NCBI GenBank assembly: GCA_963594125.1
Contig: CAVBCV010000002.1
Coordinates: forward strand, 42,211 to 106,210
Length of the DNA stretch: 64,000 nucleotides
Origin: Lachnospiraceae bacterium
Lineage (GTDB): Bacteria; Pseudomonadota; Alphaproteobacteria; RF32; CAG-239
Direction: 5' to 3'
Shown here: positions 21,821-55,509 of the stretch, piece by piece
Numbering within the stretch: position 1 is the stretch's first letter
Layout: each line of letters starts with the position of its first letter
Made by a program: the position numbers and the translations under genes
The notes under the pieces: generated by a model
What the model saw: the letters and a program-made list of their open reading frames with translations, nothing else
Told to the model about the DNA's origin: nothing
The model's database searches: none

Positions 21821-22588
21821 ATGTATACATATTTTAGCCGCCTTTTACACCGCACGCCGTCACACTCCGACTTGATCGGAGTGTCCAGGTGGGGGAAATT
21901 TGCTAATTTGGTTGACCTGGACCATCGGGTCAAGCCCGATGGTGACAACATTGTGAATGCTGGTAGGTCTATGGTGGAAATGCTTGGCGTGCTCGCGATT
22001 ATCGGAGTGCTGAGTGTTGGTGCAATAAGCGGTTATAGCAAAGCCATGTACAAATATAAACTTAACAAACAAGCTGAACAGCTTAATACTGTAATAAATG
22101 CTGTTGCCCGCAATGCGCACAGCTTTGATAATTTGTTAGCCAATAAAGGCGCCTTTTATATAACTGATACTTTTGTTAAAATGGGTGAAATTCCAACTGA
22201 AATGCAATACAGCGAACATTATATCCGTGATGTGTTTAATCTTTTTTGGACAATAAGTATACTAAACTATGACACCGGCACTTCATTAAATTTATCAGCT
22301 AACGAAGAAGGCACTTTAAAAAATAAATCAGCAAATAATTTGGACATTTGCCGCAATATTATTACTGTTGCTAAGGAAAATTCAGACAGTATCGCTTCAG
22401 TCTCAAACGTGATTTATAATCAAGACAGCGATAACTATACCGCAACCTCTTTATATGGCGATGCGTACTGCCTATCGGGCAGACCTTGTTTAAGAAACTT
22501 GAGCCTTGACGATATTTATAACTTTTGCACAAAATTTACCGGCGGCGACAAGCTGCCTCAGCTTAAAATAACATGGTGGATTAAGTAA
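21821..22588 (+). CDS. type IV pilin-like protein, paralog 2 (long N-terminal extension)
   Basis: The ORF from the conserved ATG reads MYTYF...(about 47 aa)...NAG|RSMVEMLGVLAIIGVLSVGAISGYSKAMYKYKLNKQAEQL. The mature part is homologous to paralog 1. Four Cys in the C-terminal part. An alternative internal GTG/ATG start closer to the G|R site is possible. Confidence 0.65.
   Translation: MYTYFSRLLHRTPSHSDLIGVSRWGKFANLVDLDHRVKPDGDNIVNAGRSMVEMLGVLAIIGVLSVGAISGYSKAMYKYKLNKQAEQLNTVINAVARNAHSFDNLLANKGAFYITDTFVKMGEIPTEMQYSEHYIRDVFNLFWTISILNYDTGTSLNLSANEEGTLKNKSANNLDICRNIITVAKENSDSIASVSNVIYNQDSDNYTATSLYGDAYCLSGRPCLRNLSLDDIYNFCTKFTGGDKLPQLKITWWIK
21831..21961 (+). mobile_element. RPE-like palindromic insertion, in-frame in the pilin 5' region (copy A)
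   Basis: About 130 nt absent from paralog 1. It forms three consecutive hairpins: cactccga-cttga-tcggagtg, ccaggtggggg...ttgacctgg and ccatcggg-tcaagc-ccgatgg. The reading frame is preserved. Confidence 0.45.
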
Positions 22589-23552
22589 TTTCAGTAATCG
22601 CACGCAGGTTGCCATCGCGGTTAATTTGTACCACCCGTAGCTTATGGCGCATTTCTTCAATGGTTTTAACGCGGTCAATAGTCGGATAAGTATGCAAAAT
22701 ACGGTCGGTAAACGCCTGATACGCGGCTTCAGAGCTTTCAGCGTGAATAGTTGCCAAGCAGTTATCGTGACCGGAGCCCATCAGCTCCCACAAAGCGCCG
22801 GCGTTGCTGGTTGAAATTTCACCACCGATAATGGCGTCAGGCGTAAAACGCACTACAAGGTCAATAATTTTGGCATAGTCCATTTGGTTGGTTTGCTCAG
22901 TACGCGATAACACCAAATGCACGCGGTTAGGATGCGGAACCAAAAGCTCGCGCGTATCTTCAATGGTTACAATGCGCTTATGAATATCCAAAATTTTTAA
23001 CAAGTTGTTCAAAAAGGTGGTTTTACCGGTTGAAGTTGCGCCGCTGACTAAAATATGATCACCGCGCTTAATGCTTAACAACAAGCGTTCATACGGGTCT
23101 TCAGGGTCTTTAATCTGCTTTAAAGGGTTGATTTTGTGTAATCCATGTCCTTGCGACAAGCCGTAATCTTCAAGTCCGAAAGCAACCTCATCGCTATGAA
23201 CACGGATAGTTAAGGCCACGCCGCCGGTTAAGTCATCTTGGTCATACATGATGTTACGACCGGCAATGGCTGAAAAACGGTGATCGCCGGGGATTGTGGC
23301 GTACACTACCGGCGAGCCTTGAATCGGGTCAAACGGAAGCTCATAAGTGTTGGCAACAATATAAAGCAAGTCAGTTAAATACTCTTTTGAGAGCTTTTCA
23401 TCTTTGTACATTACCCACGGATAAGCCCTTTTACCGCGCAAGCGCAGCCAAATTTGACCGGAGCGGTTTATCGCCACCTCTTCAATGTTATCTTGATTAT
23501 ACCAATAAGAGAGCGGACGTAACACTGATTCTAAAACCGTAAATGTGCTCAT
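22581..23552 (-). CDS. virB11: type IV secretion ATPase VirB11
   Basis: ILVSGATSTGKTTFLNNLL P-loop (the GGTSTGKTTF-type Walker A typical of VirB11). TIEDTRELLVPHPNRVHLV (HPNRVHL as in VirB11). PDAIIGGEIS and CLATIHAESS His-box. 323 aa. Confidence 0.85.
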   Translation of the reverse strand: MSTFTVLESVLRPLSYWYNQDNIEEVAINRSGQIWLRLRGKRAYPWVMYKDEKLSKEYLTDLLYIVANTYELPFDPIQGSPVVYATIPGDHRFSAIAGRNIMYDQDDLTGGVALTIRVHSDEVAFGLEDYGLSQGHGLHKINPLKQIKDPEDPYERLLLSIKRGDHILVSGATSTGKTTFLNNLLKILDIHKRIVTIEDTRELLVPHPNRVHLVLSRTEQTNQMDYAKIIDLVVRFTPDAIIGGEISTSNAGALWELMGSGHDNCLATIHAESSEAAYQAFTDRILHTYPTIDRVKTIEEMRHKLRVVQINRDGNLRAITEIT

Positions 23553-23563: not shown

Positions 23564-26500
23564 CTAGAATAACTGTGCCGAAGTGTTAGTGCTGCCGGCG
23601 GTTGACGACGGCGGAGGAGTTGCCCCCACTGAAGTTACCGGCGGAATTGCCTGTCGCTGCTGCTGTCTGCGCTTTTGCTTATTAGCCTCGGCATTATCAT
23701 CAATCAACGGAGTGGTCGGCTGAACATTATCAGCTTCATTATCCATATAAACAACGCCTTGAGTACCGCCGGAGGTTCCGGTACCGGAGCTGCCGCCACC
23801 GCTGCTCTTGCTTGAAGAACCTTGGTCACGGTCATCAATAAGAACCGTCGGCTTATTCAGAGCGTCAAGAGCTTCTTCATCGCTGCGGGCCGCAGTGCGT
23901 ATCCACAAATCTTCCTTAGGATAAATAATCAAACGAGTGCCGGCCGGAACATAAGTAATCGCCTCAATATTGGTTTTATCCTGCAAAATTTGATTAAACA
24001 TATCGTCCATGTTTTGCAAAAAGTTTTCACGGGCATCTTGCGCAGCCTCAGCGCGAGCATTTGAAGTAGTGCTGCCGTCAGATGAGGTTGAGGTTTCGCC
24101 ACTGGCGGCAATATACGCAACCGCGCTGCTCATCAAGGTGGTTACCATCGGCAAAGTATACTTTTTAAGCAACTGCTCATCAAGATAACCGATAGCTCCG
24201 CCGCGACCTTGAGCATCACCGGTTTGCGCCGATGAAAATTCAAACGCTGAGCCGTCAGGACGAATAAGCCGGTTCCAGGTAATAGAAACACGAACCGCGC
24301 CGCCGCTGTTACCGCCGCTTGAACCGCCGGAAGATGTGCCCATAACACGGCTACCGGCCGGAATAACGATATTGCGCCCTTGCTCGGCGTATACGTTGCG
24401 TTCAACAATCGCCGTTACCGGAGCGCTGTCTGAACCGTTGCTTGACATAATGGTACGAGCCAAAACAGCCGGAATCGGCTTATCAGCCAAAATCATTTCG
24501 CTCATATCAACACGCCAACTTGAAATTTGACGCGGAATACCGTCCCAATACGGCTGCATACCGTCAAAACTCTTGGTATCGGCATTGGTTGAAACTTTGC
24601 CGACCGTGATTTCCTGCCGACGAGCCGCCTGAGCCGCCGCTAACGCCGCCGCCCGAACCGGATCATATCTTTCTCCGGGACCAAAGCCGCCACCCGGACC
24701 TAAATTTGACGGATTGTTTCCGGTGCCGTAAGCGCCGCCCGAACCGAACGTGCCGGCCGGAATAAACATTTGTCCGCCTTTGTTGTCTTTAACTTCTTCA
24801 ATACCGATTAAGCCGCCTTCATTATCCACAATCAAGCCATCCGGCATTTTTTTACCGATTAAATTGCCAAGCTTATCAACAACATCATTGTTGATCAAAA
24901 TATCGCCAAGATAATTGCCGTCAGGCGTTAAGGCAATGCCGATGGTTTTAAGCCCGTATTTGCCGGTATCGTCCGTGGTGGAACCTTGCGGAACATCAAC
25001 AGCGCCGATATTGATTTTGCCGCTATCCGGTTTGCCGGTGCCATCGCGGCGGGGAGTGTTTGCCCAATCCGCCGGTTTAGGCTCGCTCGGTTTTACCACA
25101 TTATAATACTGCAGTTCTTTTGCTAATGCCAAAACTTTGCCGCTATCATCACTGATTTCACCGCTGCCGCTGATTTTACCGATAACTTTACCGTCATGAT
25201 TGATAACTTCGCCGTTTAAGCGCAGTTCGCCGATAACATTATTAGCGTCATCGCGGATAAAGTAATCACGGTTGCCGCGACCGATTAAAGTATAATCTTT
25301 GCTGACTAAAAAGCCTCTGTCGGCTTTGCCGATACGATTACCGGCAAAATTAAGCACTATTCCGTCACGGGTTAAATAACCAAGCGTGTTGCCTTCGTCA
25401 TCATAAACATAAAAATCATACAAGGCATAACCAATGTTTTTATTATCATTAACCACCGTACCGTCAGCCAAAACTTTACCTAAAATGTCGTTTTTATCGC
25501 TGATGACCGTGCCGTCTGAAGTTACACGACCTAAAAAGCTGTTATCATGGTTAAAGGCAACTTTATAGCGGAAAGCCATACCTAAAACCTCACCGCCTGA
25601 TGATAACGCCGTGTCATCAGGCTGCATATAACCGAGCTCTTTGTTAGTAGAGCTGATAATTTTGCCGCTGGTATTACTGCGACCAAGTATATTGTTTTCA
25701 AAGTCAATTACCGGGAATACTTCTGCCACCCGACCGATAAATTTACCGTCATTGTTATAATAGCGCCCATTCCAAGTAACACAGCCTAAATCTTCATGAT
25801 TGTAGTTAAGCAAATGTCCGAGCGGATTAACCGTGCCTAAGCCTTTACCGGCAAAGTCAGCAACCATGCCTGATTTTACGCCGAAGCCTATCATATTGCC
25901 AACCTCAGATACTGCCTGCCCATTGGTTAAAATTTTGCCAAGCACAACGCCGCGGCTGTTGCGGATTTCACCGCGCGGACCGATAACACCCAAAAATGAG
26001 CATTTGTTGTTAACCACGCTGCTCATATTGCTGATTTTACCGATTAATGATTTGTTGGTATCAGCAACAATATCACCACCTAAAACCGAACCGATTTTGT
26101 TACCGGCAAAATCTCGCACAGCGCCGAAAATATCAGCATAGCCAAGCATATCGCCACTGATTGAGGTTGCTAAAAATGATTGTCCGGCGCCGCCGATAAC
26201 CGGCATTTGCTTGTTATCAGGCGTTCCGGTTGCCGAAATGACTTTATAACCGGGGACAATTTTGCCGCTGATATTACCCTTTTCATCAGTGATTAAATTG
26301 GTTTCAGTTAACGAACCCAAACTCTGCCCATCAGCTGAAACGACAAAATACGGATTAAGCGTGCCGACAACAACTTTATTGGCTGCGTCAAGGGCTAAAC
26401 CGGTTGCAGTTAATTTATAATTTCTTTCAGCCGGAATGCCCTGCAATTCGGCATTAACACCGATATATCCGCTAAGCTCGCCCGCCTCAGTATACAAGGC

Positions 26501-27811
26501 TGAGAGCGGAACGGAATTTCCGACCAATAAATTATCGGCAGAATATACATATCCGAACGGCGAAACCTTAAATTTGTTAATGCCGTCTTCAGAAAAATCA
26601 GCTCCGATACCGCTTAAACCCACTAAATTGGAACTATTATCAAAAATCAGCGCTGTTTCAGGAGCGGCGCCGATAATGCGCCCGATATTATCATAAGCAA
26701 TTTTGCCTTTGGCATAACCAAGCGGCGTTCCGGTTACGGAAATAACCGCGCCGCTGCGCAAGATTTGAGCTTGCAGTTCAGCCAAATAATCAAACACCGG
26801 TCCCGATTTAATCACCTGACCGATAATTTTACCGTCAGGGTCTTTTACAAAACCGCGGGCAGTGATAGTACCTACGCTTTGCTGAGCCTTGTAAACGCTT
26901 CCGTCCGGCATAACGCGTCCTAAATATTTGCCTTTTAAATCCGTTGCCGTGGCGGCAATATCAATTTTAAAGCCGATAACCTCATTTTGATTGTTAATAA
27001 TTTTATCATCGGCGCGTAATTTGCCAACAACTTTACCCAAGCTGATAACCTCGCCGTTATAGGCAACCAAGCCAAGATATTTGCCGAAATTATCAAAAGC
27101 ATAACCGTTGGAAACCGCTTTACCGATAACTTTATTATTTTCATCATAAGCAAAACCGTTAGCATGAATTTTGCCGATAACTTTAGCCTCAAAATCCGTT
27201 ACTTTTCCGCCGGGGGCAATACTGCCGATAAAATCGCCGGTTGGCGAAACAACCATTTTGGCGGAAATTAATTTACCGTCTAACACATACCCGTTGCCGC
27301 TGTTACGATAAGCATAACCCATGGCGGAGATAAAACCGATATTTTGTCCTTCCATGCTGATATATTGCCCGTCGCCGGTTAAACGACCAATCGCGTCGCC
27401 TTTATCATTATAAACCAATCCCGGATATAAAACCGCGCCCAAAATATTGTACGAATCGTCAACCACTAAAGCATTCGGCAGCACTTTACCTACAATTTTG
27501 CCGGACGGAAGACGCACTGAGCCGTCATTATTTACTCGTCCTAAAAGTTTATTATCATTGCCGATAGCAATACCCTGAGGAATAATGCCGCCTTTAATCT
27601 CGCCTTTGTTATTTACAATAAAACTATCAGCGGTAATGTTGCCGATAACTTCATTGTCAAAGCTGACCACCGTACCGTCAGGAATAACCTTACCGATTAA
27701 ATCGCCGTTAAAATTAATGGCCGTAATTTCTTGCGCAAAAGCCGAACCGGCCGTCATACAAATGACCGCCGTTAACATGATTTTGCATAATTTCAGTAAT
27801 TTTCCTGCCAT
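23564..27811 (-). CDS. virB10: giant repeat protein with VirB10/TrbI C-terminal domain
   Basis: Start at MAGKLLKLCKIMLTAVICMTAGSAFA (signal or anchor; RBS ggagga upstream). About 1100 aa of about 11-residue tandem repeats (GxxIGxVxxDGxVxx). A Gly/Ser-rich linker follows. The C-terminus contains PAVLARTIMSSNGSDSAPVTAIVERNVYAE...RVSITWNRLIRPDGSAFEF...AITYVPAGTRLIIYPKEDLWI, matching the VirB10 beta-barrel domain. Confidence 0.7.
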   Translation of the reverse strand: MAGKLLKLCKIMLTAVICMTAGSAFAQEITAINFNGDLIGKVIPDGTVVSFDNEVIGNITADSFIVNNKGEIKGGIIPQGIAIGNDNKLLGRVNNDGSVRLPSGKIVGKVLPNALVVDDSYNILGAVLYPGLVYNDKGDAIGRLTGDGQYISMEGQNIGFISAMGYAYRNSGNGYVLDGKLISAKMVVSPTGDFIGSIAPGGKVTDFEAKVIGKIHANGFAYDENNKVIGKAVSNGYAFDNFGKYLGLVAYNGEVISLGKVVGKLRADDKIINNQNEVIGFKIDIAATATDLKGKYLGRVMPDGSVYKAQQSVGTITARGFVKDPDGKIIGQVIKSGPVFDYLAELQAQILRSGAVISVTGTPLGYAKGKIAYDNIGRIIGAAPETALIFDNSSNLVGLSGIGADFSEDGINKFKVSPFGYVYSADNLLVGNSVPLSALYTEAGELSGYIGVNAELQGIPAERNYKLTATGLALDAANKVVVGTLNPYFVVSADGQSLGSLTETNLITDEKGNISGKIVPGYKVISATGTPDNKQMPVIGGAGQSFLATSISGDMLGYADIFGAVRDFAGNKIGSVLGGDIVADTNKSLIGKISNMSSVVNNKCSFLGVIGPRGEIRNSRGVVLGKILTNGQAVSEVGNMIGFGVKSGMVADFAGKGLGTVNPLGHLLNYNHEDLGCVTWNGRYYNNDGKFIGRVAEVFPVIDFENNILGRSNTSGKIISSTNKELGYMQPDDTALSSGGEVLGMAFRYKVAFNHDNSFLGRVTSDGTVISDKNDILGKVLADGTVVNDNKNIGYALYDFYVYDDEGNTLGYLTRDGIVLNFAGNRIGKADRGFLVSKDYTLIGRGNRDYFIRDDANNVIGELRLNGEVINHDGKVIGKISGSGEISDDSGKVLALAKELQYYNVVKPSEPKPADWANTPRRDGTGKPDSGKINIGAVDVPQGSTTDDTGKYGLKTIGIALTPDGNYLGDILINNDVVDKLGNLIGKKMPDGLIVDNEGGLIGIEEVKDNKGGQMFIPAGTFGSGGAYGTGNNPSNLGPGGGFGPGERYDPVRAAALAAAQAARRQEITVGKVSTNADTKSFDGMQPYWDGIPRQISSWRVDMSEMILADKPIPAVLARTIMSSNGSDSAPVTAIVERNVYAEQGRNIVIPAGSRVMGTSSGGSSGGNSGGAVRVSITWNRLIRPDGSAFEFSSAQTGDAQGRGGAIGYLDEQLLKKYTLPMVTTLMSSAVAYIAASGETSTSSDGSTTSNARAEAAQDARENFLQNMDDMFNQILQDKTNIEAITYVPAGTRLIIYPKEDLWIRTAARSDEEALDALNKPTVLIDDRDQGSSSKSSGGGSSGTGTSGGTQGVVYMDNEADNVQPTTPLIDDNAEANKQKRRQQQRQAIPPVTSVGATPPPSSTAGSTNTSAQLF

Positions 27812-27821
27812 AGTTAACACT

Positions 27822-30800
27822 TTAATTCCTCCGATTTTGAGCAACTTCCTGCAATGCGTAACCTGATACATTTTTATCTAAGTCAACAAACGAGCCGTTG
27901 CTTTTTAAGTATCCGATGTCTTTACCGTTACCTGATATAACTCTGCCGGTTGCCGCCAAGCGTCCCAAATATTTACCGTCATTTGAAACTATCGCCGTTC
28001 CGGTTTTATAGGACATACCTAAAATAGCATTTTGATTATCAACCGCCAAGCGCCCTGATAAAACCCGTCCGATAACAGAATTATCAAACCCGCGAACCGT
28101 GCCGTCAAAGCCGACATAAGCCACAACTTTATCCTGATTGTTAATTACAATATCGGCATCGGCAATTTCACCTATTAAACGACCTTCTTTATTTACCGCT
28201 TTACCATCGGAATAAACTTTGCCGATAACCACATTTTTGGTATTGATTACCGCGCCGTCAGGCAATACGGAACCGATAATTTTGCCGCCGTAATTAATTA
28301 CAACGCCGCGTTTAAGCACACTTAAATTTTTATCGCTTGCGCCGCCGGGGAGTATAAAAGTTGTCCGTTTAGAATTTAAATCGCGCACTCCGCCGGAAGC
28401 ATCAGTGTATCCGGTATAATTTCCGAATAAGTCAGTTACCACCGATTCAGGCACAACCTCGCCGATTACATTGCCGTTATCAGCGTTTAAGATTAATCCG
28501 TCACTGTTTTCAAGACCGGCTTTTTTACCTTTTTTATCAATAACCGTGCCATCAGCTTTAACATAACCTAAATACGAACCGTCATAACCGATTGCGGCGC
28601 CGGTGCGAACAATGCCGCCCGCGTATTGGTGCTTATCATCAAACCAGCGACCTTTGGCATCAGCCTGCCCCAAGTGTTCGCCGAAACGAGTTACAACTCT
28701 GCCATCCGCATTAATAAAACCTACATTTTTGCCGTTAAAATCAACCACTTTACCAAACGGAAGCAGTTTGCCGATGTTGCCGATATAAAAGCTCATGCCA
28801 TCACCGTAAATGCGGTCAATCACAGCGCCTTTATTATCATAAACATTGCCGTCAGCAAACAGACGACCGATAATATTACCGTCTGAATTTAACAAAATAT
28901 TTTTTTCAGGCAACGCCACCCCGATTATCTTATTGTTTTTATCAGCAATGTATTTGTGCAAAAACAACTTGGCGTCAGGGTGAGCTTTAATTTGCAAGGA
29001 GCCGTCAGATTCAAACGTACCTAACAATTTTCCATTTAAATCAAAGGCATAAAACGGCTGCGAGATTTTACCCAAATAAATTCCGTCTGAGGTGAATACT
29101 TCATCGTCAGTATTAACACATCCCACCGGCAATAATGCCGCAGAAACAACGTTGCCGGTCGGCACTAATCTTCCGACTACCCCGCCTTCAGCATTAAACG
29201 CCACTTTATACCGCGCAACTTTGCCGATAATATCGCCGTTATCATTTAACACACTGCCATCAGGATTTACGCAGCCGACATATTTTTTATCTTCATTTTT
29301 AACAATACCCTGCTCATCGGCGTCGCCAAGATAATTGCAGCTATTGTCAAACACGCGACCGGTTTTTACAACATCGCCCATATAAATATTTTTTTCATTA
29401 TAAACACTGCCGTCAGCATACACATGATAAGGCATATCCTGCCCATCTTTGGTAATAACGCCGGTTTTATTTAAAACTCCGACATTAGAGCAGCCCCAAC
29501 CGATTATAGTACCGCCGCGAACACCTTTCGCCACAAATTTGGAGCCGTTAGCCTCTTTAACCAAAGTGTTCGGCAACATACGACCCAACACCTGACCGCG
29601 GGTATTAATAACTTCTCCGGTCGGCGAAACATTGCCTAAAACCTTGCCTTCCGGTGTTATCGGAATTAAATCTGCGCGAACAATAGCGCCGATTTTGACT
29701 GCTTTGTTACTGATGACATTGCCGTCTTTATCCACCCTGCCAACTATACCGCCGTCAGCGCCCACTACGGAACCGTCTTTTTTTACATAACCCAATACTT
29801 TGCCGTCATCACTGACTGCCAAATTATTATACTCTCCTACTCTGCCGACAATATTACCGCGCTCATCAATAATAGTGCCGTCAGGCTGCATTTTACCGAT
29901 AACCCGCCCGTTAGCGTCTAAAATAGTGCCATCTTCAAGCTTTTTCCCGATTTTGTTACCGTTAAAATCATAAATTGTGCCGTCTTCATCAATATAGCCG
30001 ACCGCATTTCCATCCGCGTCATAATATATCTGCCGCGACGCGCCGAGTTTACCGATTTTTTCATTGCTTAACTTATAGGCATCGCCGTTTTCATCAACAT
30101 AACCAACCACATTGCCATCCGTATCAACAATAGAGTTATCAGGCATAACCACGCCTAAAACATTGCCGCTTTCATCAACCGCGGTACGTCCGGGTTTGCT
30201 GACATAGCCGATAACATTGCCGTTCATATCAACAACTTCGCCATTAGAATTTAACCTGCCGATAACGTTACCTTCTTTATCTACCACCGTGCCGTCTTCA
30301 AGCACTCTGCCGATAACATTACCGTTGGAATCGTAAACATATCCGGCTTCTACCGATTTACCGATTTTTACCCCATTACGATCAACCACTGTACCATCAG
30401 ATATTTCTTTACCGATAACATTGCCGTTAAAATCAAAAGCTTTACCATCAGCGCTGACTTTACCAATAACATTGCCGTTATCGTCATAAATCAGTTTTTT
30501 ATTACCGGCGACACCGATAATATTGCCGTTTTCATCAACGATGAGTCCGTCTTCATTAACCCTGCCGATAACATTACCGTCTTCATCACGAACATAACCT
30601 TCATCATCAATATAACCGATGATTTTACCATCCGGACCATAGGCTATGCGGTTTTTGCCATCATCAGCCATGGCTTTGCCGATAGTTTTACCGCTTTTAT
30701 CCAAAACATTGCCTTTAGCATCCAAAGTGCCAAGTTTGTTACCGTTTAAGTCAACTACTTGCCCGTTCGGCGTAACATATCCGATAATATTGCCGCTTGT

Positions 30801-31937
30801 ATCTCTGACAATTCGGCTGTTTCCGGGCGCTGTTTTGCCAATTAAGCTACCATCTTTATCAACAACATTGCCATAAGCGTCAGCCGTGCCGATTTCGTTA
30901 CCGTTTAAATCAACAGCCTGTCCGTCAGGAGTGATATAGCCGATAATATTGCCGTCCGCATCTTTGATAACCATGGTGTCACCGGTTGAAACTTTACCGA
31001 TTACATCGCCGCTTTTATCTAAGACATTGCCATTAGAATCAACCGTACCAAGGCGTTCGCCTTTTAAGTCAACCGCTTTACCGTTCGGGGTAATGTAACC
31101 AATGATTTTTCCGTTAGAATCGCGGATAACCAAATTTTCACCGGAAACGGCTTTACCGATAACATTACCATTTTTATCAATAACATTGCCATTAGCGTCA
31201 AGATAGCCGATTTCATTGCCGTTTAAGTCAAACGCGCGTCCGTCAGGGGTGACATAGCCAATAATATTACCGTCAGCATCTTGGATAAGCATGCGTTCAG
31301 CGCCATCTGAAGCGCCGCCGGAAGGAGTGGTGGTGCAAAAGTTGCAATCGGCCTGCGTAACTGCTTTACCGTCAACCGGAACTTTTTCAGCTTTGGCATT
31401 TTGCGCACCGACATTAGTTTCATGCCATGAGATAATAAAATTATTCTGCACATTGCCGCCGGTGGTCGGGAACCATTGCATGGTAACATTACAAGTTTGA
31501 TTGCCGCGTAATTCTTTGCCGCTGCAATCATCATCATAGCGGAATCCCTCAAACGGAGGTTCGGCAAGCTTTACTGAAACAATGCGAATAGGCGTTTTGC
31601 CGGTGGTGCCGATAGTCAGCACGTTTTTAGCATCTGTGCCCAACACAACCTGCCCCATATTAACCGGGTTCGGCGTGGTGGTAATCGGGAGTTCGGTTTC
31701 CTCCACTTCTTCAAACTCAAGATTATTGATGAGAGGATTGGTGTTTTCATTAAAATCTATTACATTGTCATCAGCGGTAAATACCGGCTCTTGTGATTCT
31801 TCGGGAGCCGCCCCGCTTGAAAACAACAGCAACAAACCAAATAAAAACACCACAAAAGAAGTAATACCAACAATCAAAATTATTCGGTTGGTTTTACGAA
31901 CATATCTTTCAGAGTGTGTTAAAACTTCTTTACTCAT
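27822..31937 (-). CDS. giant repeat protein with VirB10-like N-terminal topology (cytoplasmic tail, single TM, Pro/acidic linker)
   Basis: MSKEVLTHSERYVRKTNRIILIVGITSFVVFLFGLLLLF gives a cytoplasmic N-terminus plus one TM. An acidic/Pro linker and a Cys-containing globular segment follow. Then about 1100 aa of the same 11-aa repeat family (DxNGNxIGxVxPDGxxVD...) organised in about 44-aa super-repeats. It ends 10 nt upstream of the VirB10-domain gene. Confidence 0.6.
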   Translation of the reverse strand: MSKEVLTHSERYVRKTNRIILIVGITSFVVFLFGLLLLFSSGAAPEESQEPVFTADDNVIDFNENTNPLINNLEFEEVEETELPITTTPNPVNMGQVVLGTDAKNVLTIGTTGKTPIRIVSVKLAEPPFEGFRYDDDCSGKELRGNQTCNVTMQWFPTTGGNVQNNFIISWHETNVGAQNAKAEKVPVDGKAVTQADCNFCTTTPSGGASDGAERMLIQDADGNIIGYVTPDGRAFDLNGNEIGYLDANGNVIDKNGNVIGKAVSGENLVIRDSNGKIIGYITPNGKAVDLKGERLGTVDSNGNVLDKSGDVIGKVSTGDTMVIKDADGNIIGYITPDGQAVDLNGNEIGTADAYGNVVDKDGSLIGKTAPGNSRIVRDTSGNIIGYVTPNGQVVDLNGNKLGTLDAKGNVLDKSGKTIGKAMADDGKNRIAYGPDGKIIGYIDDEGYVRDEDGNVIGRVNEDGLIVDENGNIIGVAGNKKLIYDDNGNVIGKVSADGKAFDFNGNVIGKEISDGTVVDRNGVKIGKSVEAGYVYDSNGNVIGRVLEDGTVVDKEGNVIGRLNSNGEVVDMNGNVIGYVSKPGRTAVDESGNVLGVVMPDNSIVDTDGNVVGYVDENGDAYKLSNEKIGKLGASRQIYYDADGNAVGYIDEDGTIYDFNGNKIGKKLEDGTILDANGRVIGKMQPDGTIIDERGNIVGRVGEYNNLAVSDDGKVLGYVKKDGSVVGADGGIVGRVDKDGNVISNKAVKIGAIVRADLIPITPEGKVLGNVSPTGEVINTRGQVLGRMLPNTLVKEANGSKFVAKGVRGGTIIGWGCSNVGVLNKTGVITKDGQDMPYHVYADGSVYNEKNIYMGDVVKTGRVFDNSCNYLGDADEQGIVKNEDKKYVGCVNPDGSVLNDNGDIIGKVARYKVAFNAEGGVVGRLVPTGNVVSAALLPVGCVNTDDEVFTSDGIYLGKISQPFYAFDLNGKLLGTFESDGSLQIKAHPDAKLFLHKYIADKNNKIIGVALPEKNILLNSDGNIIGRLFADGNVYDNKGAVIDRIYGDGMSFYIGNIGKLLPFGKVVDFNGKNVGFINADGRVVTRFGEHLGQADAKGRWFDDKHQYAGGIVRTGAAIGYDGSYLGYVKADGTVIDKKGKKAGLENSDGLILNADNGNVIGEVVPESVVTDLFGNYTGYTDASGGVRDLNSKRTTFILPGGASDKNLSVLKRGVVINYGGKIIGSVLPDGAVINTKNVVIGKVYSDGKAVNKEGRLIGEIADADIVINNQDKVVAYVGFDGTVRGFDNSVIGRVLSGRLAVDNQNAILGMSYKTGTAIVSNDGKYLGRLAATGRVISGNGKDIGYLKSNGSFVDLDKNVSGYALQEVAQNRRN

Positions 31938-31949: not shown

Positions 31950-33626
31950 TTACTGAATACGAACCACACTGCAGAACACACCGTTACGACCGAGCTGGCT
32001 GCAAATTTCATCACCGGCATCTATGGATTGAACCGGTCCGATTCTTAAGTGGAACAGCTCGCGTCCTTGTCCGTCAGCCGGAGCGTCAACCGAATAAAAC
32101 GGCTGATAACCGCCAAGCGCCGATGAATATTTGCGCGAAAGTTCTCCCCACAAGTTTTCCAAATTGCCAACATCAGAATCGGTGCCAAGTTCTACGGAAA
32201 TGCTGGCGACATCATCGCCTTCAAAGCCACTGCCGTAACGATAATCAGCAAACGGATTTTTGCCTTCGGGCAGCTTGCTCTTGTTATCAATATGATGCAT
32301 TTTGCTGTAATCAAGGTTAAGAGCGCCTTTACCGCCAACACCGGCATTAAAGGACGAGCCTTTGCCGCCCGCGCTACCGCCGTTGTTACCGGCATTACCT
32401 GAAAGGGCGTTTACGTCAACACCGACAAAGGTTGCTCCGCCCATGTTGCCGCCCGCGCCGTTAGCGCCATTTGCTCCGGCACCATAGCCGTTATAATTAT
32501 CAGCGCCACCCGGTCCAAAGCCTTGAACTACACCGCCTTTACCGGAAACAGAAGCTTTTTTGCCTGACGGTAAAGCAGGCGGAACCTGCCAATCATCACT
32601 TTCGGCATATTCAACATATTCAAGTCCGGCATCATCGGCGCGGCGCAATTTTAAGCAAATTAAGCGTTTGCCGTTGCGCAAAACCATATCGCCGACACCT
32701 TCAACAATGATTAAACGGTTGTTAGGTCCGGCAGTACGGAAGCCGACCGGAGTTTCAACACGCTCAACAATTAAGGTTACAATCGGGCGCTGAACCATAT
32801 TTAAGGCTTTTTCGCCAAAATCAATATAGGTGAAAATATCGTCACGCCAAACGCGTTCCGGCGCAATAACCACATCATCAGGGTTAGGAACATAAACTTC
32901 AATATCAAAACGGAATTTGGTCGGGTCAAGCGGAATGCTCTGAATCCAATCTTCTTTTTGATTGCGCTTGGTAAACAATGAATCGGCCGATTTATTGCTG
33001 CCGCCGCGATATGCGCTGGCATTTACGCGACTACCGCCGGAACTACCACCTCCGATAGCGCCGACGGAACTCCCGTTTTTTTCCGCGTCCACAACCTCAA
33101 TATCAATAATTGAGTTAGTTAAGCGCTCAGTATTTACACCCTCACTGCGAGCATAAAACGCATATTTATTGCCTGAGCGACCAAAAACCATAATATTAGT
33201 ATCAACACCAACCATCGCGCCTGATTTAGGATACAATAGTAATGTGTTAGGTCCGGAAATACGGGCGTCAAAAGTTTTGCTATCGCCGATGTAAACATCT
33301 TCAACCAACTCCCATTCCGGAAAGTTTACAAGCGTTATCATACCTTCGCGCAGGCGTACCGGCAAAACCAAATCAGGCGACCAATAATAGCGGGAATATG
33401 CCGGCTTGCTTTGCCCTTCGCCCAAGTTTTGCAATGGGTCTAACCATGCGCTTTGCATCATACCCAAGGAGCTGATACCGGTATAACCCATGTTCATCGG
33501 CTGATACATGCCCTGACTTTGGTCGGCATTTTGGTTTAAGCTGTCAATGCTCGCTTGCGCGTGCGCTGTCAACGGCGCCGCCATTAATGCAAAAACTGAC
33601 AATATTTTACTAACACAATGTTTCAT
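31950..33626 (-). CDS. virB9: VirB9/TrbG-like protein fused to a C-terminal SPOR-like domain
   Basis: Signal peptide. VirB9 N-domain (MITLVNFPEWELVEDVYIGDSKTFDARISGPNTLLLYPKSGAMVGVDTNIMVFGRSGNKYAFYARSE). VirB9 C-domain (VVIAPERVWRDDIFTYIDFGEKALNMVQRPIVTLIVERVETPVGFRTAGPNNRLIIVEGVGDMVLRNGKRLICLKLR). Long Gly/Asn-rich linker. The C-terminal approximately 70 aa (ASISVELGTDSDVGNLENLWGELSRKYSSAL...ELFHLRIGPVQSIDAGDEICSQLGRNGVFCSVVRI) has the SPOR two-half pattern. Confidence 0.75.
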   Translation of the reverse strand: MKHCVSKILSVFALMAAPLTAHAQASIDSLNQNADQSQGMYQPMNMGYTGISSLGMMQSAWLDPLQNLGEGQSKPAYSRYYWSPDLVLPVRLREGMITLVNFPEWELVEDVYIGDSKTFDARISGPNTLLLYPKSGAMVGVDTNIMVFGRSGNKYAFYARSEGVNTERLTNSIIDIEVVDAEKNGSSVGAIGGGSSGGSRVNASAYRGGSNKSADSLFTKRNQKEDWIQSIPLDPTKFRFDIEVYVPNPDDVVIAPERVWRDDIFTYIDFGEKALNMVQRPIVTLIVERVETPVGFRTAGPNNRLIIVEGVGDMVLRNGKRLICLKLRRADDAGLEYVEYAESDDWQVPPALPSGKKASVSGKGGVVQGFGPGGADNYNGYGAGANGANGAGGNMGGATFVGVDVNALSGNAGNNGGSAGGKGSSFNAGVGGKGALNLDYSKMHHIDNKSKLPEGKNPFADYRYGSGFEGDDVASISVELGTDSDVGNLENLWGELSRKYSSALGGYQPFYSVDAPADGQGRELFHLRIGPVQSIDAGDEICSQLGRNGVFCSVVRIQ

Positions 33627-33644: not shown

Positions 33645-34391
33645 TTATTCGGCTTTATTACGTGAAAGCGAATATCTGGTAACAGTAAAGCCTACCGGAT
33701 TATTCAAACGTTCACCATATTTAACGGTCTTTTTACGATACATAATTCTTAAAGAAGCGGTCCAATAATTAATTTCCGGCGCGGAAGAATCAGGATACAT
33801 ATCACGAGTTTCATATTCAACCTGCCATAAACCGCGACCAAGCTCGTTTACGGTCATAATCCGCACCACTCTGATTAAACCGCGGTTACGAATTATATTT
33901 AATGCCGGTCTGGCGGTTTTTTCAACAAACGACTGATAAACAGCCGATGATGACATCTCCTGCAGCTGTCCGCCCGGCATCCAACGAGATTCCATTTCAG
34001 AAACATCGTTGGTAAAGGCGCTGCGCAACAACACATACTCGCGAACAAAAACTTCAGTTATGGCTTTGCGGTCTTCCATATTGCGCAGAGGAACGATGTC
34101 ATAAACCTGTTCCTGTTTGTTTTCAAACGTTAACAAAAACGGCTCAAGGCGGTACAGCGGCAAAAGCTGTGTAATTGCCAAAATTAAAACCAAGTTACAA
34201 CACAAGCTGATAGCAACGATAACCGCAAATGCGCGCGCCGTCCACAAATAGCGCTTTTCACTGGCGTTTACCACAATATCTTCAGCGCGGCGTCTTTGCG
34301 GCTGAGGGCGACGCACCGCCTGACGCGGCATTCCGCCCTGTCCGGTAATTAAACGCTGCTGCGTGTTGCCTATACCTAACCTATCTGCCAT
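33645..34391 (-). CDS. virB8: VirB8-like protein (paralog a)
   Basis: Cytoplasmic N-terminus, one TM (FAVIVAISLCCNLVLILAI), periplasmic NTF2-like domain ending in NPVGFTVTRYS (VirB8-type NPxGFxVTxY motif). Confidence 0.7.
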   Translation of the reverse strand: MADRLGIGNTQQRLITGQGGMPRQAVRRPQPQRRRAEDIVVNASEKRYLWTARAFAVIVAISLCCNLVLILAITQLLPLYRLEPFLLTFENKQEQVYDIVPLRNMEDRKAITEVFVREYVLLRSAFTNDVSEMESRWMPGGQLQEMSSSAVYQSFVEKTARPALNIIRNRGLIRVVRIMTVNELGRGLWQVEYETRDMYPDSSAPEINYWTASLRIMYRKKTVKYGERLNNPVGFTVTRYSLSRNKAE

Positions 34392-34733: not shown

Positions 34734-35492
34734 TTAAAGAATTTCAACTTCTGTCTGAGAATATCGGGTTACGGTAAAGCCGAGCGGGTTCATCAAACGT
34801 TTAGCCATAAACATTCGCTCAGGAATAAACACCGCGGTAAGCGATGCCGTCCAATATTTGGTAACAAGCACCATACTGCCGTTTTCAGAATTGCGAACAT
34901 CAGGCGAAAGGTCATATGTGCGGAAGTCAATTTTCCACACGCGGCTTTTTTCACCGCCGACCCGACCGATTGAAATAATTTCAGCATCGCGAACCACTCT
35001 GGTTTTTAATAAATCGCCAAGGTCTTTGAGCTGTTTGGCCTTAAATTCGGCATAAACCGACGGCGACGAGAGGTATGAGACCATACCGCCCGCATACCAC
35101 CTGCTTTGCATTTCGCGCTCGTCATTTAAGACCGTATTGCGCAAAAGTACATATTGCCGAATAAAAAGATCCATAATTTGATTGGAAGAGGGCATATCGG
35201 GAGCGATGGTTTCATAACGCACCATGGTGTCGGAACTATCTTGTTTGATAATTAAAAACGGCTCCACCATAACCTCAGGGGCAAGCTTAAACAGCACCAA
35301 CGAGGCACTGGTAAAAAAGCCCAATGACAATATGGCAAACAACATTACCAACCGCGACAACCAGCAATAATAAAGCTCTTTGGCGCTTTTTACCGCTGAT
35401 TGTCGGTCGGTGATGTAATTAACCTGCCGCGGGGCGGCGTTTGCATCGGTTATAGATAAAGTTTCGTTTCCGTTTCCAAGTTGATTTACCAT
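34734..35492 (-). CDS. virB8: VirB8-like protein (paralog b)
   Basis: Same architecture as paralog a: TM (LVMLFAILSLGFFTSASLVLF), C-terminal NPLGFTVTRYS. Clearly homologous to 33645-34391. Confidence 0.7.
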   Translation of the reverse strand: MVNQLGNGNETLSITDANAAPRQVNYITDRQSAVKSAKELYYCWLSRLVMLFAILSLGFFTSASLVLFKLAPEVMVEPFLIIKQDSSDTMVRYETIAPDMPSSNQIMDLFIRQYVLLRNTVLNDEREMQSRWYAGGMVSYLSSPSVYAEFKAKQLKDLGDLLKTRVVRDAEIISIGRVGGEKSRVWKIDFRTYDLSPDVRNSENGSMVLVTKYWTASLTAVFIPERMFMAKRLMNPLGFTVTRYSQTEVEIL

Positions 35493-35504: not shown

Positions 35505-38500
35505 TTACTCTTCACTTCCGCAATAGGGTTCTTCAAAGTTGTTCAAATTGTTCTGAAACTCTTTTTCAGCCTCGTCTTCATATTTTGAACGCGCCTGTTC
35601 ATCAGCCCGAGCGGTTTTGATTTTTTCAGATAGTTCGGAGTTCGGCTCGCTGTTATCGTCTAAGTCAACCAACTCTTCATTATCCATTTGCAAAGAGCCC
35701 ATTATGTTCTTTACCTTTTTAATTTTTTCTTCCAAGGCGTCATTTAACGGCTTAACCTCGGCAATTTGCTTTGCGCCCTCAGCGGTTAAAGCGTTTTTGC
35801 GACTGTCAAGCGCCGCGGAAATGGTGTTGAAAGTGCCCTCATCCGATAAGTCAAAATCAGCCGGAGGAGTATAGCCTATGTCAGCAAATTTCTTTACCAA
35901 GAACTCGCGAGTTTCATTCATTTTAACTTCAAGCTCATCTACCGAATCCTGATAATGAGTTTCCATTTCAACAAAGTTCAGATAATCGCCGAAAACGTTG
36001 CGGGTAAACAAAGCCTTGCGGTAAGTATTCATTTTATGAATATCCTCATCGCTGGTGTCGTCACTGTCATCAGCTTCAGCCTCGTCAAGATATTGCATGA
36101 TTTTTACAATAGTTTTGCTAAAGTCTAAGCCTCCGTTGGTTACCTTAGGCGGGAAGGTTATGACCGCATCGCCGGTATAGGACAAGATTTGCGCCAATTC
36201 GCTCCTACCTTCCGACTTATCGGTTGATTCATTTTCAACCGCGCCGGTCTTAAAATCAGCGCCATCATTAAAGGTGATATAACCTCTGCCCATAATTACC
36301 TTGACTGATTTAACATCAGTACATTTTTTGGTGGTAACCTTTTTGTGGTAGACTTTATATTCGCCGTTTTTAATATCAACCACATAATTGCCGTATGCAC
36401 ACGGGTATTTATCGCCGCGGAGCACTTCATCACCGGCATCGGTGTTGTTCATGCCGCCTAAAACCTCAGTAACATCAACATCGCGCTCAACAAAGCCGTT
36501 CGGCTCTAAAACAAGTTTCCAAATCGGCGGAATTTCTTGTCCGTAGGCTAAAAAGTCAGCGCGGGTGGTTTTCCATAAATCTGATTTAACAACATTGCCG
36601 AAATCAACTCCGTCAAAGTGAACAACCTCTCGCATCGGCGGAGTGTAGCTGATGGTTATGCCTTTCGGCGCCTGAAAATCAGCGAGTTTCGGGTCAAGTC
36701 CGACAAAGTAATTATCATCAGCCTGATAGCATTTTTCACCGCCGCACATTTGTTCAACAATAGCGGTTGCCGCCAATTTGGCTAAAGCTTTAACATCGCC
36801 GAACAGAAGCAAATCAGAACCGGCAAAGGTTGCGTTTACTTCTTGCATGCTTTGCATCATTTCGCGGTGAATTTGCAAAATTTGCTGATGTCCCGCCAAT
36901 GTGTAACGAGCATCACCTAAGCCTTGAATTTTGCCATAAGCCTCATCAACGCTGGCAAGAGCCGCGGTTTTAAAGGCGTCAATCGCATTATCGGTAACGC
37001 CAAGCACCGCCGACAAATAAGTTTGTTTAAGCTCAGCCTCTTCCGTTGCAAAGCCGGAAGCTTCCGAAACAAAGCTGCTGCCGGAAAGCGAGTGCTGCAC
37101 AATGCTATCTTGCTGCTGTTGCATTGCTTGCTTTAAGGCTTGCATATTTTGATATTCAAGAGCCGAAGCATTGGCGGCATAATCGCTCTTTAAACGGGCG
37201 ATTTTTTCATCCAGACTTTCAAGCTGAGAGCGCAACTTGTCTATTTGCTCGCGCTTAGCCTCAATGCCGTTCAAGGCTGTTTCTTCTTTAGCCTTGGCTT
37301 CCTCAGCCTTCTTTTGCATATAAGCAACGCCTTGTTCGCCGCGTTTTTCAAAGCTCTTGTCATAAGCAGATGATTCTTTGCTCTTTTCCTGTGAAATTTT
37401 AATAGTCTGCTTTTGATAATCAGCGTTTGCCTCCGCTTCCTGACGCTCTTTGACCGCGTCATTATATTTTTCCTTCATGCCGTTAAGCTCAAGGTTAGCG
37501 GCGTCAAGACTTGCGTAAACGGAGTTTTTCTGATTTTCAAGCACGGCTAAACTTGCCAGAAAATCATCACGCAATTTTTTAACCGCAGCATCGGCTTTTT
37601 GCTTAGCCGCCGCCAAGTTTGAAACCGGCGCATCTGCGGCAACAGCGGCTTCGGCAAACGGAAGCATATTAGTTAAAGCCTCAGCGTTAAATTCTTTAAC
37701 CGTATCAATGGTGAACTCTTCAGGCAATTCAGGCTCGCCGTTAAAATCAGTGATGGCGCCATTGATAGACATTGCCAAATTAACGGCGACAACTCTTAAA
37801 TCAGCGTTATTGATATATTTTTTGATATTTTCATACTTTAATTTAAGATACTGGTCATAAACATGTTTTTCATCGGTCCAAATCGGGTACGCGCCTTTCA
37901 TGCCGCCCCATTTAGGGCTGGCAGACGCCATATCCGCGCCGATTGCTTTCGCCATTTCAGCGCCAAGCTGCCAGGTCATCAGCTCCTCGCGGCGGTTTTC
38001 GGCTTCCGCTTTAGGCTCGTCGCTCGGGCGCAATAATGAACTGTCGCCCAAGCCGCTTGCATTTTCCTGCTTTAAGCGTTCGGTATTTTTTTCCATATTT
38101 TCAATATTGCCGTCACCGTCCGCTATTAAGCTGGTGGAGTAATCATCTGAGGTCAGCTCCAAGGTTTTTACCGCTTTGGCGGCTTTATAGGCTGAAATCA
38201 GCCAGCCGCTCATACCGGCGCGGTTTGAATATTTGTTAATGCCGTAGCTGCTGCAAATTTTGTTGCCGCAGAGAATATCGCCTTCCTGCAAATGTTTTAA
38301 GTTTTCAGGCGTTACCGGTTTGCCGCTGTCGCAGTAAAGGTTAGTGCCGGTATAGCTGCACCCCTCGCCTGCCCAAACATCAACCGGTGTTGCATAATAT
38401 TTATTTACAAATTTAACGGCGCACTGCTCTGATTTTAACAGTTGCTCAATGGCTTTTTCATGAAGTTTTTTCATTTTAGCATATTCTTCAAAGCCGCGCT

Positions 38501-39563: not shown

Positions 39564-39576
39564 TGCTTATTACTCC

Positions 39577-40824
39577 TTACTTATCGGTTACGCCTGCCAA
39601 AATGCCGGTTTTGTCTTCATCAGTCGGCACATCTTTTACCGTAAACACGTAATTATCCAAATTGAGCTTAGCCGGATCTTTATCATAATTCAGCAAGCGA
39701 TACTTTTGGTTACGAATGTTTAATGATGTTTTTAAGCGCATATCGGCAATGATTAAATTGGTGTAGTTATACAAAATTTTAATATCTTCAATTCGCTGTT
39801 CAATCAGCAAATTACCGGCCGTTAACTTAGCGTCAACTGCGGCGATGTTATCTTTTTTACGCTCTAAGCGCTCCAGATCATCATCAAAATGCAATTTAAG
39901 TTCAGCCGCTGAGATAAACGCGTTTTTAACGTCCGCGGTTAAAACTTCTTCACGATGAGTGCGAATGCGCTTAACGTTAGGTTCGTTTTCAGGCTCATCA
40001 GGCAGCAAGAAGTTTTCCTTTATCATGGCGTTATATTCCGTGGTTTTTTCTTCCGGGCTCTTTTTAAGCATCGGGGCAAGCGCAGTTTGCAAAAACTGTT
40101 TACCGGTATCTATGCCAAATTCAGCAAGCTGTTTTTCAAGCAACTTTTTCTCTTCAAGCAGTTTTTGATAAGTTTCGTCATCTTTTAAGAAGCCGTCTTC
40201 ATCTTTGTCAAACTGCTCGGCTTGAGTGGTGTAATTTTGAGCCTCAAGCTCAGCCGCCGCAAGTTGCGTGGCAATCATATTGCGAACCTCATCATCGGTT
40301 GCTTCCGCAAGCATCTCTTGCAAAATTTTTACATTAGTGACCGCATTTTGCTGGTTAGCCAACAGCTGAGTTTCGGCATTCTTTTTATAATCGTCCATTT
40401 CTTTTTCTTTGTCGGTCAGCTGTTTGGTAATTTGCGAAACCTGTCCGGCGTCAGAACCGGTTAAACCCGCCACTTGTTCCTCATAAGTTTTAACCGTTTT
40501 ATCTTTTAAGCCTTCAACCGTGCCGGTAACTTCATCAATTTTTTTCTGAGTGTTTTCATAAGTATCCTGAACGGATGAAGCCGCCGCCGCAACATCTTCT
40601 TTAAGAGCTTTAACGCTTTCAACCGCGGTGTTGGCGCCGGTGTAAAATTCTTGCACTTTACCGGCGACGGTGTTTACAACCGTGCTCGCTTTTTCAGCGG
40701 TTTCCTCAACCACGGAAACAACTTTACCCGCGGTTGCCGCCACGTCAATTTTTAATCCGGCGCGAGCCTCTGCTCCAACACATGTCAGTGCCAAAAGCAA
40801 AATAACAAATCTATTTTTCTGCAT
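39577..40824 (-). CDS. secreted coiled-coil protein (415 aa)
   Basis: Start at MQKNRFVILLLALTCVGAEARA (ATG 40824, RBS AGGAGGG) rather than the longer ORF-track start. Entirely helical and charged. Confidence 0.55.
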   Translation of the reverse strand: MQKNRFVILLLALTCVGAEARAGLKIDVAATAGKVVSVVEETAEKASTVVNTVAGKVQEFYTGANTAVESVKALKEDVAAAASSVQDTYENTQKKIDEVTGTVEGLKDKTVKTYEEQVAGLTGSDAGQVSQITKQLTDKEKEMDDYKKNAETQLLANQQNAVTNVKILQEMLAEATDDEVRNMIATQLAAAELEAQNYTTQAEQFDKDEDGFLKDDETYQKLLEEKKLLEKQLAEFGIDTGKQFLQTALAPMLKKSPEEKTTEYNAMIKENFLLPDEPENEPNVKRIRTHREEVLTADVKNAFISAAELKLHFDDDLERLERKKDNIAAVDAKLTAGNLLIEQRIEDIKILYNYTNLIIADMRLKTSLNIRNQKYRLLNYDKDPAKLNLDNYVFTVKDVPTDEDKTGILAGVTDK

Positions 40825-47979: not shown

Positions 47980-48389
47980 TTGTTTTTCTCCTTAAATATC
48001 GTGACAAAACTTCTTATACACTTATAGAATACCAGATTTGAGAACATTTTGCCAGTTTTTTATAGTCTGCGCAATTTTTGTTAACACTTTGTTTTTAATA
48101 CAAAAACATGCCGTGTAACAAAAAATTCATATTCACCTTCGGCATTCAATACGGGCTTTAGTATATTTTTAAAAGGTAAAAAAATCTCTAATTTTTTAAA
48201 ACAGCTTTTGGTTTAAAAATTTGCAAAACGCTTGCGGCAGAAAAAATTTCCGCAACTTCATTATATTAACGCAATTTTAAGGTTATCAGTTGTATCTTTT
48301 TTATAACCGGAAGGGCGATTTGCGCCCAAATTGTATGCAAACGCATTGATTTGGCGTGATAAATTGCCGTATTAGGAGTTTGGAATTTT

Positions 48390-52626: not shown

Positions 52627-52644
52627 CAGTAAAGGAATAATACC

Positions 52645-55495: not shown

Positions 55496-55509
55496 TAAGG
55501 GTACGCTCA

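Follow-up and report, generated by a model that had tools for sequence, protein, structure and literature searches.

Two adjacent, beta-hairpin-expanded genes as the probable halves of one VirB10 in a type IV secretion locus of gut Alphaproteobacteria

Introduction

VirB10 is the textbook case of a protein that spans both membranes, and it is thought to relay ATP-driven signals from inner-membrane ATPases to the outer-membrane gate of a type IV secretion system. Canonical VirB10 is one chain of about 380–480 amino acids (aa), and everything N-terminal of its barrel is periplasmic. Must this signalling chain be continuous? The question is raised by a 64,000-nt stretch of DNA (hereafter the window; GenBank assembly GCA_963594125.1, contig CAVBCV010000002.1, positions 42,211–106,210), deposited as Lachnospiraceae bacterium and placed by GTDB in the alphaproteobacterial lineage CAG-239, in which virB9 and virB11 enclose two long adjacent genes. 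The upstream gene, here called VirB10N, encodes a membrane anchor, the downstream gene, VirB10C, encodes the outer-membrane barrel, and both are filled with beta-hairpin repeats. We consider it likely that the two are the N- and C-terminal halves of one ancestral giant VirB10, which was expanded by repeats and then broken within them, and that bodies of fixed length on either side of the break rebuild the bridge. Anchor and gate kept on separate chains by selection would amount to a natural experiment on the continuity of the signalling chain, with the two fixed hairpin bodies as the interface that would carry the signal. The bacteria that carry the pair are little-studied, uncultured Alphaproteobacteria of the gut.

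The gene pair and its junction

Both open reading frames (ORFs) lie on the minus strand where the initial annotation had placed them (Table 1), and the topology that it had proposed for each was borne out. It had described the upstream protein as a VirB10 N terminus without a barrel, consisting of a short tail, one transmembrane (TM) segment and a Pro/acidic linker. The lone hydrophobic segment of VirB10N is found at aa ~16–46 with basic residues before it, the acidic/Pro linker is present, and a Pfam scan of the protein gave no TrbI match. Within the tail motif, K15, T16 and N17 are invariant among 23 orthologues. The immunoglobulin (Ig)-like domain that follows has two conserved cysteines, C138 and C149, and aligns with the corresponding module of unsplit VirB10s; it is presumably periplasmic, a location that the conserved cysteine pair would fit. 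Domains of this ASH type form a very large family and occur in tandem in giant proteins, for example as 36 copies in one protein of 4,358 aa.

For the downstream protein, a signal peptide of its own and a VirB10/TrbI barrel had been claimed. The only hydrophobic segment of VirB10C is an N-terminal signal-like stretch ending AFA|QE, and a hidden Markov model (HMM) check of the barrel returned PF03743 over essentially its full length (E 3e-32; 112.5 bits, cut-off 35; positions 2–187 of the 188 in the profile). The sequence of the signal peptide drifts freely across species; its small-x-small site (AFA in the window) is conserved, and the mature N terminus is nearly constant in orthologues, reading QEITAI(D/N)FNGDL(I/L)GKV. 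Full-length homologues of VirB10C measure 1,383–1,570 aa. The barrel is followed by a Ser/Gly/Pro-rich tail of about 110 aa (23564–23902, minus strand) that ends ...AQLF, and the terminal L-F (or L-Y) is retained in nearly all homologues, distant ones included. The inner-membrane anchor and the outer-membrane barrel are on separate polypeptides, and 73 of 77 related loci keep the stop codon and the new signal peptide that part them.

The reported gap of about 10 nt and the reported GGAGGA ribosome-binding site are both there, the latter within the last codons of the upstream gene. The upstream gene stops at TAA 27824–27822, and 10 nt separate this stop from ATG 27811, the earliest ATG past it in an open frame that extends from 23564 to 27871. 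A GTG at 27820 lies 1 nt past the stop and 6 nt past GGAGGA. Because the starts picked for orthologues are mostly 0–3 nt past the upstream stop, this GTG is more likely than ATG 27811 to be the start of VirB10C. The context CGGAGGAA(T/C)TAA is found again at most orthologous loci. A Shine-Dalgarno sequence embedded in the end of VirB10N suggests that translation of the two genes is coupled. Exact-sequence look-ups with both window proteins found no record.

Conservation of the split

When the barrel alignment was used to scan a single genome of each species, 577 relatives were found, of which the best 80 loci were taken. Together with loci fetched earlier and the window itself, those in which the N-terminal module of VirB10N and the barrel are both present make up a set of 77 loci. 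In none of the 77 do the VirB10N module and the barrel share one ORF. An intact upstream ORF (1,037–2,362 aa) abuts the barrel ORF (1,393–2,118 aa) in 73 of them, always between virB9 and virB11, and the order virB9, pair, virB11 matches that of the window in more than 70 loci. The relative frame of the two ORFs varies by species, being the same with one intervening stop in about 14 and shifted by +1 or +2 elsewhere, and the intergenic lengths vary too; this variation rules out a shared sequencing frameshift, and the varying frame argues against a conserved recoding signal. In three relatives the upstream gene is found in two or three ORFs (L001, 10001–14707; L003, 10001–13336; L024, 3139–6750), with a run of N inside the broken gene of L001. 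Faulty assembly of the repeats is the probable cause, but some of the three may be pseudogenes.

Both genes are under strong purifying selection. Between the window and a relative with 95% amino acid identity (L009), the ratio of non-synonymous to synonymous substitution rates (dN/dS) is 0.057 for VirB10N and 0.077 for VirB10C, so both are functional genes. By part, the ratio is 0.81 in the signal peptide, 0.06 in the body, 0.025 in the barrel, 0.04 in the N-terminal module of VirB10N and 0.05–0.07 in the repeats.

Ancestry of the gene pair

Unsplit relatives exist in a short and a giant form. Three distant relatives (P0167, P0171 and P0173) are single chains of 704–739 aa. In each, a K-x-T-N tail precedes a single TM segment, and the chain continues with an Ig-like domain bearing a cysteine pair, then an acidic linker and roughly four hairpin-like units before the TrbI barrel. 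In locus L007 a short unsplit gene stands directly after virB9 (CagX+SPOR). The N-terminal module of VirB10N matches the 704–739 aa unsplit proteins over 152 columns, tail and TM segment included (hhalign probability 96.2%, E 2.6e-9), and matches short unsplit proteins by BLASTP with E 7e-7.

A profile of this module built from split-family sequences only (A2) was searched in 1.84 billion representative proteins. It matches once, over the whole module and at the N terminus, in P0341 (2,201 aa), P0380 (2,350 aa), P0382 (1,930 aa) and P0397 (1,498 aa), with E-values of 8e-25 to 1e-19, and according to Pfam each of the four carries beta-flower arrays and a C-terminal TrbI barrel on the same chain. 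When the two window proteins were concatenated, BLASTP alignments ran across the junction, pairing residues 7–1861 of P0380 with 6–1937 of the concatenate (E 3e-135) and residues 171–2081 of P0341 with 588–2672 (E 8e-152). On two independent contigs P0380 is encoded in the order virB8, small ORF, virB8, virB9, P0380, virB11, which is the arrangement of the window with one gene replacing two.

Relative to the window, identity of the barrel declines stepwise, from at least 53% in split loci to 48% in P0380, 36% in P0397 (these two being the unsplit giants with a separate barrel alignment) and 27–31% in the short unsplit forms, a series that would fit one fission after repeat expansion. From these comparisons, a gene-fission origin of the pair is well supported. 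The initial reading of a VirB10 function distributed over two repeat-extended chains is upheld by the 73 split loci, by the single-chain relatives and by P0380 in the same slot. A graded evolutionary series of short unsplit, giant unsplit and split forms is thereby available.

The hairpin repeats

The two proteins had been described as sharing a repeat family, which holds, but as having a period of about 11 residues within super-repeats of about 44 aa, which does not. The period is 17 aa: at that lag, identity amounts to 0.24 in VirB10N (z = 21) and 0.18 in VirB10C (z = 12), against 0.08 in shuffles, and autocorrelation at lags 11, 22 and 44 gave no signal in either protein (z < 2). The unit reads D-x-N-G-x-x-I-G-x-V-x-x-D-G-x-x-V. 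The sole super-repeat measures 53 aa (17+17+19) and is limited to the start of the VirB10N array, where Tandem Repeats Finder reports a single weak array (period 159 nt, 2.8 copies, 67% match, window 30848–31288); at the DNA level the repeats are, on this showing, old and diverged.

The family, which the initial annotation had not recognised, is the beta-flower/DUF3659 group of Pfam (PF21785, PF21784 and PF12396; clan CL0395), matched above curated thresholds, and the 17-aa unit contains the hairpin 'petal' with a [DNEQ]xxG turn that characterises it. VirB10N matches Bflower_2 in 11 stretches (E 6e-89, 293.8 bits, cut-off 38), DUF3659 (E 1.5e-52, 175.8 bits, cut-off 24.8) and Bflower (E 1.9e-42, 144.7 bits, cut-off 25); VirB10C matches Bflower_2 (E 5.6e-51, 171.6 bits). 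Repeats fill about 1,150 aa of VirB10N and about 970 aa of VirB10C, giving about 2,100 aa of hairpins per pair, or some 65 + 55 hairpins by estimate, taking 17 aa of array for each.

Variation in length is confined to particular regions. Nearly all differences in VirB10N length between species fall within aa ~207–722, where pairwise alignments show gaps of varying size among which 17, 34 and 51 aa recur. In VirB10C the large differences lie at aa ~854–955, before the Gly-rich linker, and reach about +670 aa in L028. The C-terminal tail of VirB10C has smaller indels, of 8–23 aa. The regions that flank the break, namely VirB10N aa ~681–1371 and mature VirB10C aa 1–~900, are colinear and almost free of indels down to 45% identity, and among 73 orthologues an ungapped consensus is conserved for 150–260 residues on each side. 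The C-terminal consensus of VirB10N, ...LDKKV(S/A)GY(V/A)LQEVAKNRRN, is nearly invariant.

Between the window and L009 there are no indels, and between the window and L010 there are only indels of 1–4 aa; copy number is unchanged among relatives with 84–95% identity. Near-identical variants (99.9–100%) of one abundant species, individual variants of which occur on up to 262 contigs, differ by the start-codon call and one Ser only. Because of this near-absence of indels, and of the agreement among the variants of one species, repeat copy number is judged to be stable, unlike that of CagY. An apparent 17-aa length polymorphism in one species (1,553 against 1,570 aa) was rejected as a product of alternative start-codon calls, with no change in repeat number.

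An AlphaFold2 model of a 520-aa stretch of hairpin body is one rigid all-beta body with paired short strands every 17 residues (predicted local distance difference test, pLDDT, 90.5; predicted template modelling score 0.88). Comparison of this model with solved structures gave no global match, and a sequence search of the PDB with the repeats gave nothing significant. The hairpins may be arranged as closed flowers, which in this fold are small barrels of four-, five- or six-fold symmetry, or as one continuous sheet.

Genomic context

The features of the locus and of the two proteins are collected in Table 1. The four secreted-type proteins, of which the one of 521 aa is strongly acidic, obtained no Pfam or NCBIfam assignment. 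No VirB6 could be recognised. The tandem VirB8 duplication recalls the vir homologue systems of Rickettsiales, and a conserved ORF of about 60 aa lies between the virB8 paralogues in the related loci L001, L003, L006 and L089. SPOR, a peptidoglycan-binding domain, occupies aa 484–556 of VirB9, and its combination with CagX is found in L007 as well. Beside the secretion locus, and divergent from it, lies a type IVb pilus-like cluster (48390–58307, plus strand).

Table 1. Positions of the virB genes, of the segments of VirB10N and VirB10C, and of neighbouring genes in the window.
Feature	Position	Strand	Remarks
Two TrbC/VirB2 pilin genes	47603-48007 and 47180-47530	-	Paralogues, E 2e-6 and 1e-8; head of the locus
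3-TM protein	45973-47157	-	
Candidate virB3	45555-45845	-	96-aa membrane protein; by position only, no Pfam match
VirB4	43133-45565	-	
Four secreted-type proteins without family	35505-43052	-	1,352, 438, 244 and 521 aa; signal-peptide-like N-termini
Two tandem VirB8 paralogues	33645-34391 and 34734-35492	-	
virB9 (CagX + C-terminal SPOR)	31950-33626	-	Directly upstream of the pair; Pfam CagX E 1.3e-12, SPOR E 0.0019; NCBIfam VirB9 E 9e-9
VirB10N, upstream gene	27822-31937	-	ORF, 1,371 aa
Cytoplasmic tail and single TM segment of VirB10N, aa 1-41 (predicted)	31815-31937	-	Conserved S-E-x-Y-V-(K/R)-K-T-N motif
ASH-like Ig domain with conserved Cys pair, aa ~85-175	31413-31685	-	Weak Pfam ASH match, aa 90-165, E 0.002
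Variable-number array of regular 17-aa beta-hairpin units, aa ~207-680	29898-31319	-	Includes the 53-aa super-repeat
Fixed-length hairpin body of VirB10N, aa ~681-1371	27825-29897	-	Position-specific conservation; ends ...GYALQEVAQNRRN
GGAGGA Shine-Dalgarno of VirB10C	27827-27832	-	Inside the VirB10N codons for C-terminal R-R-N
VirB10C, downstream gene	23564-27820	-	1,415 aa from ATG 27811; 1,418 aa from GTG 27820
Signal peptide of VirB10C, aa 1-26 (predicted)	27734-27811	-	...SAFA|QE; small-x-small site
Fixed-length conserved hairpin body of VirB10C, mature aa 1 to ~900	25034-27733	-	
Short variable array, then Gly/Pro-rich linker, aa ~927-1106	24494-25033	-	
TrbI/VirB10 beta-barrel domain, aa 1107-1303	23903-24493	-	PF03743
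virB11 ATPase	22581-23552	-	Directly downstream of the pair; Pfam T2SSE E 4.4e-22
Pseudopilin-like gene	21821-22588		Other flank of the secretion locus
TcpQ-like gene	50238-51020	+	Pilus-like cluster
Secretin	50986-52626	+	Pilus-like cluster
R64-type PilO	52645-53937	+	Pilus-like cluster
ATPase	55510-57174	+	Pilus-like cluster
T2SSF platform gene	57186-58307	+	Pilus-like cluster

Homologues of either half come from metagenome-assembled Alphaproteobacteria of gut and rumen, under source names that include 'Azospirillum sp. CAG:239' and 'Candidatus Scatocola faecigallinarum' and that the NCBI taxonomy places in Rhodospirillales. In public databases they carry the automated names 'TrbI/VirB10 family protein' or '5-fold beta-flower protein', and two full-length homologues (P0198 and P0244) are wrongly or oddly annotated ('ribosomal protein L27', JGI; 'cOMB3', Azospirillum sp. 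CAG:239). All of the related species-level genomes that were sampled have the secretion system, and purifying selection on it is strong between the window and L009; it is therefore probably central to the lifestyle of its carriers.

Proposed origin and alternative explanations

The events and the architecture that we propose are as follows. The ancestor would first have been enlarged by arrays of 17-residue beta-hairpins of the beta-flower/DUF3659 type, and a break inside the repeat region would then have produced two translationally coupled genes. VirB10N would sit in the inner membrane with its N terminus inside, following the positive-inside rule, and would project the Ig-like domain, the variable hairpin array and the fixed 690-aa body into the periplasm. 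VirB10C would be exported separately via Sec, probably with cleavage at AFA|QE, and its TrbI barrel would insert into the outer-membrane core with VirB9. The fixed bodies flanking the break (690 and 900 aa) would bind each other non-covalently and restore the bridge from inner to outer membrane, and the variable arrays beside each membrane module would act as spacers. A plausible advantage of the split is the separate export of a very long periplasmic polypeptide.

Several observations limit this proposal. The Ig-like part of the module, taken alone, matches many unrelated giant proteins and is not specific to VirB10; as a widespread tandem domain it was dropped as evidence of VirB10 ancestry, and the argument is built on the full-length single-stretch matches that also include TrbI. 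Among species, the two halves show no clear compensation in length (Spearman -0.39 and Pearson -0.02, without correction for phylogeny). For an artificial fusion of the last 260 aa of VirB10N with the first 300 aa of mature VirB10C, single-sequence AlphaFold2 gave a pLDDT of 38.8, too low to speak for or against co-folding at the break. No virD4 and no relaxase were seen in the 64-kb window. Finally, the roughly 2,100 hairpin residues of a pair far exceed what is needed to cross a normal periplasm, and simple bridging may be too simple an account. Because of this excess, the hairpins may instead build a large ring or cage, like the cylinder proposed for DotG, or may be partly surface-exposed. 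The initial annotation had ventured an adaptation to a very wide periplasm, or a surface fibre, as possible roles.

A further step is offered tentatively, at somewhat less than an even chance: that covalent continuity of VirB10 is dispensable, and that the fixed hairpin bodies, presumably in many copies, form a very large periplasmic all-beta structure without a solved counterpart. If this is true, these Alphaproteobacteria, common in human and animal guts though uncultured, have a type IV secretion machine of a new architectural class, and the beta-flower fold has its first functional setting. The finding itself places that fold in a defined machine.

The alternative that survives best, although we hold it to be unlikely, is that VirB10N derives from VirB10 and has become an independent periplasmic or cell-wall repeat protein, such as an accessory scaffold or a binding protein, leaving VirB10C as a VirB10 of the outer membrane only. 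VirB10C does have an export signal and a complete barrel of its own, and the SPOR domain of VirB9 could provide anchoring in another way. However, the genes are adjacent at every locus examined, with stop and start tightly spaced; the tail motif of VirB10N is invariant, and dN/dS in its N-terminal module is low; and the regions flanking the break are highly conserved and of fixed length in both proteins, not in one.

It is distinctly improbable that the hairpin arrays form a fibre or sheath at or beyond the cell surface that touches target cells, as has been proposed for the repeats of CagY. Such a role would account for arrays far longer than the periplasm requires, the repeats of CagY and DotG have been argued to be host-exposed (PMC6761968), and the hairpins locally resemble the repeats of Rhs/YD proteins and teneurins, which lie outside the cell or are secreted. 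The low dN/dS of the repeats and the absence of copy-number change within a species are unlike surface-exposed repeats under immune selection, however. The standard VirB10 topology would also leave both arrays in the periplasm, and VirB10N is predicted to be anchored in the inner membrane.

It is very improbable that a full-length VirB10 is still produced, whether by programmed readthrough of the stop codon or by ribosomal frameshifting where the two ORFs meet. The same-frame ORFs with a single stop in about 14 related species would allow it, but the frame is 0, +1 or +2 depending on the species, and the window is out of frame. Moreover, a signal-peptide-like segment follows the junction in every species, a GGAGGA-type Shine-Dalgarno sequence precedes the start in most, the window included, and a fused product would contain an internal signal peptide. 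The probability that the split is a sequencing or assembly error within one long gene is negligible: the region is repetitive, and the assemblies of L001, L003 and L024 do break or frameshift in the upstream gene, but a stop and a new start recur in 73 independent species-level assemblies with differing junction lengths, and the DNA repeats are old and diverged. The fission of a giant VirB10 into two cooperating chains is the reading that we retain.

Comparison with known systems

Like canonical VirB10/TrbI proteins (Agrobacterium VirB10, pKM101 TraF and R388 TrwE), the window pair has a TrbI barrel and a position between virB9 and virB11, and read together the two proteins supply the tail, the single TM segment, the periplasmic linker and the barrel. 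Unlike them, the pair has its anchor and its barrel on separate chains of 1,371 and about 1,415 aa, the barrel half has a cleavable-type signal peptide of its own, and about 2,100 aa of hairpins and an Ig-like domain are inserted. To our knowledge, no split VirB10 has been known, and literature searches found no paper on VirB10 with DUF3659, on fission of a VirB10 gene or on type IV secretion in CAG-239.

In the described beta-flower proteins (PF21784, PF21785, PF21786 and PF12396), a computationally defined group built of hairpin 'petals' with a [DNEQ]xxG turn and with no solved structure or known function (Durairaj et al. 2023; PMC10584680), the fold forms small single domains of about 96 aa. 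The window proteins share with them strong HMM matches, short strands in an all-beta body and the lack of a solved structural neighbour, and differ in that the hairpins are concatenated inside a secretion scaffold. Local hairpin geometry is also like that of the Rhs/YD shell proteins (Rhs effectors of type VI secretion systems, BC subunits of Tc toxins, and teneurins): the best Foldseek match is RhsA (7q97, E 1.4e-14), and there is a weak Pfam RHS_repeat match (E 1e-5). The closed YD-repeat cocoon, the Rhs core motif and the encapsulated C-terminal toxin of that group were not found in the window proteins.

The closest precedents for an enlarged VirB10 are CagY and DotG. Helicobacter pylori CagY is a VirB10 orthologue enlarged several-fold by repeats N-terminal of the barrel (PMC5954226, PMC3585145). 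It is one chain with another type of repeat sequence, in which in-frame recombination within strains tunes secretion; the window repeats, unlike those of CagY, are diverged at the DNA level and are not the near-identical copies that recombine. DotG (IcmE) of the Legionella/Coxiella type IVB systems has a TrbI C terminus, an N-terminal anchor and a central repeat region that varies in length with the species (1,000 to more than 1,500 aa), and has been reported to form a periplasmic cylinder or central channel (PMC6761968). DotG has pentapeptide repeats on a single chain, whereas the window has 17-aa beta-flower hairpins and the gene content of a P-type (virB) system. Repeat-expanded VirB10 proteins were thus already known, and what sets the window pair apart from CagY and DotG is the type of repeat, the apparent stability of its copy number and, above all, the split into two genes.

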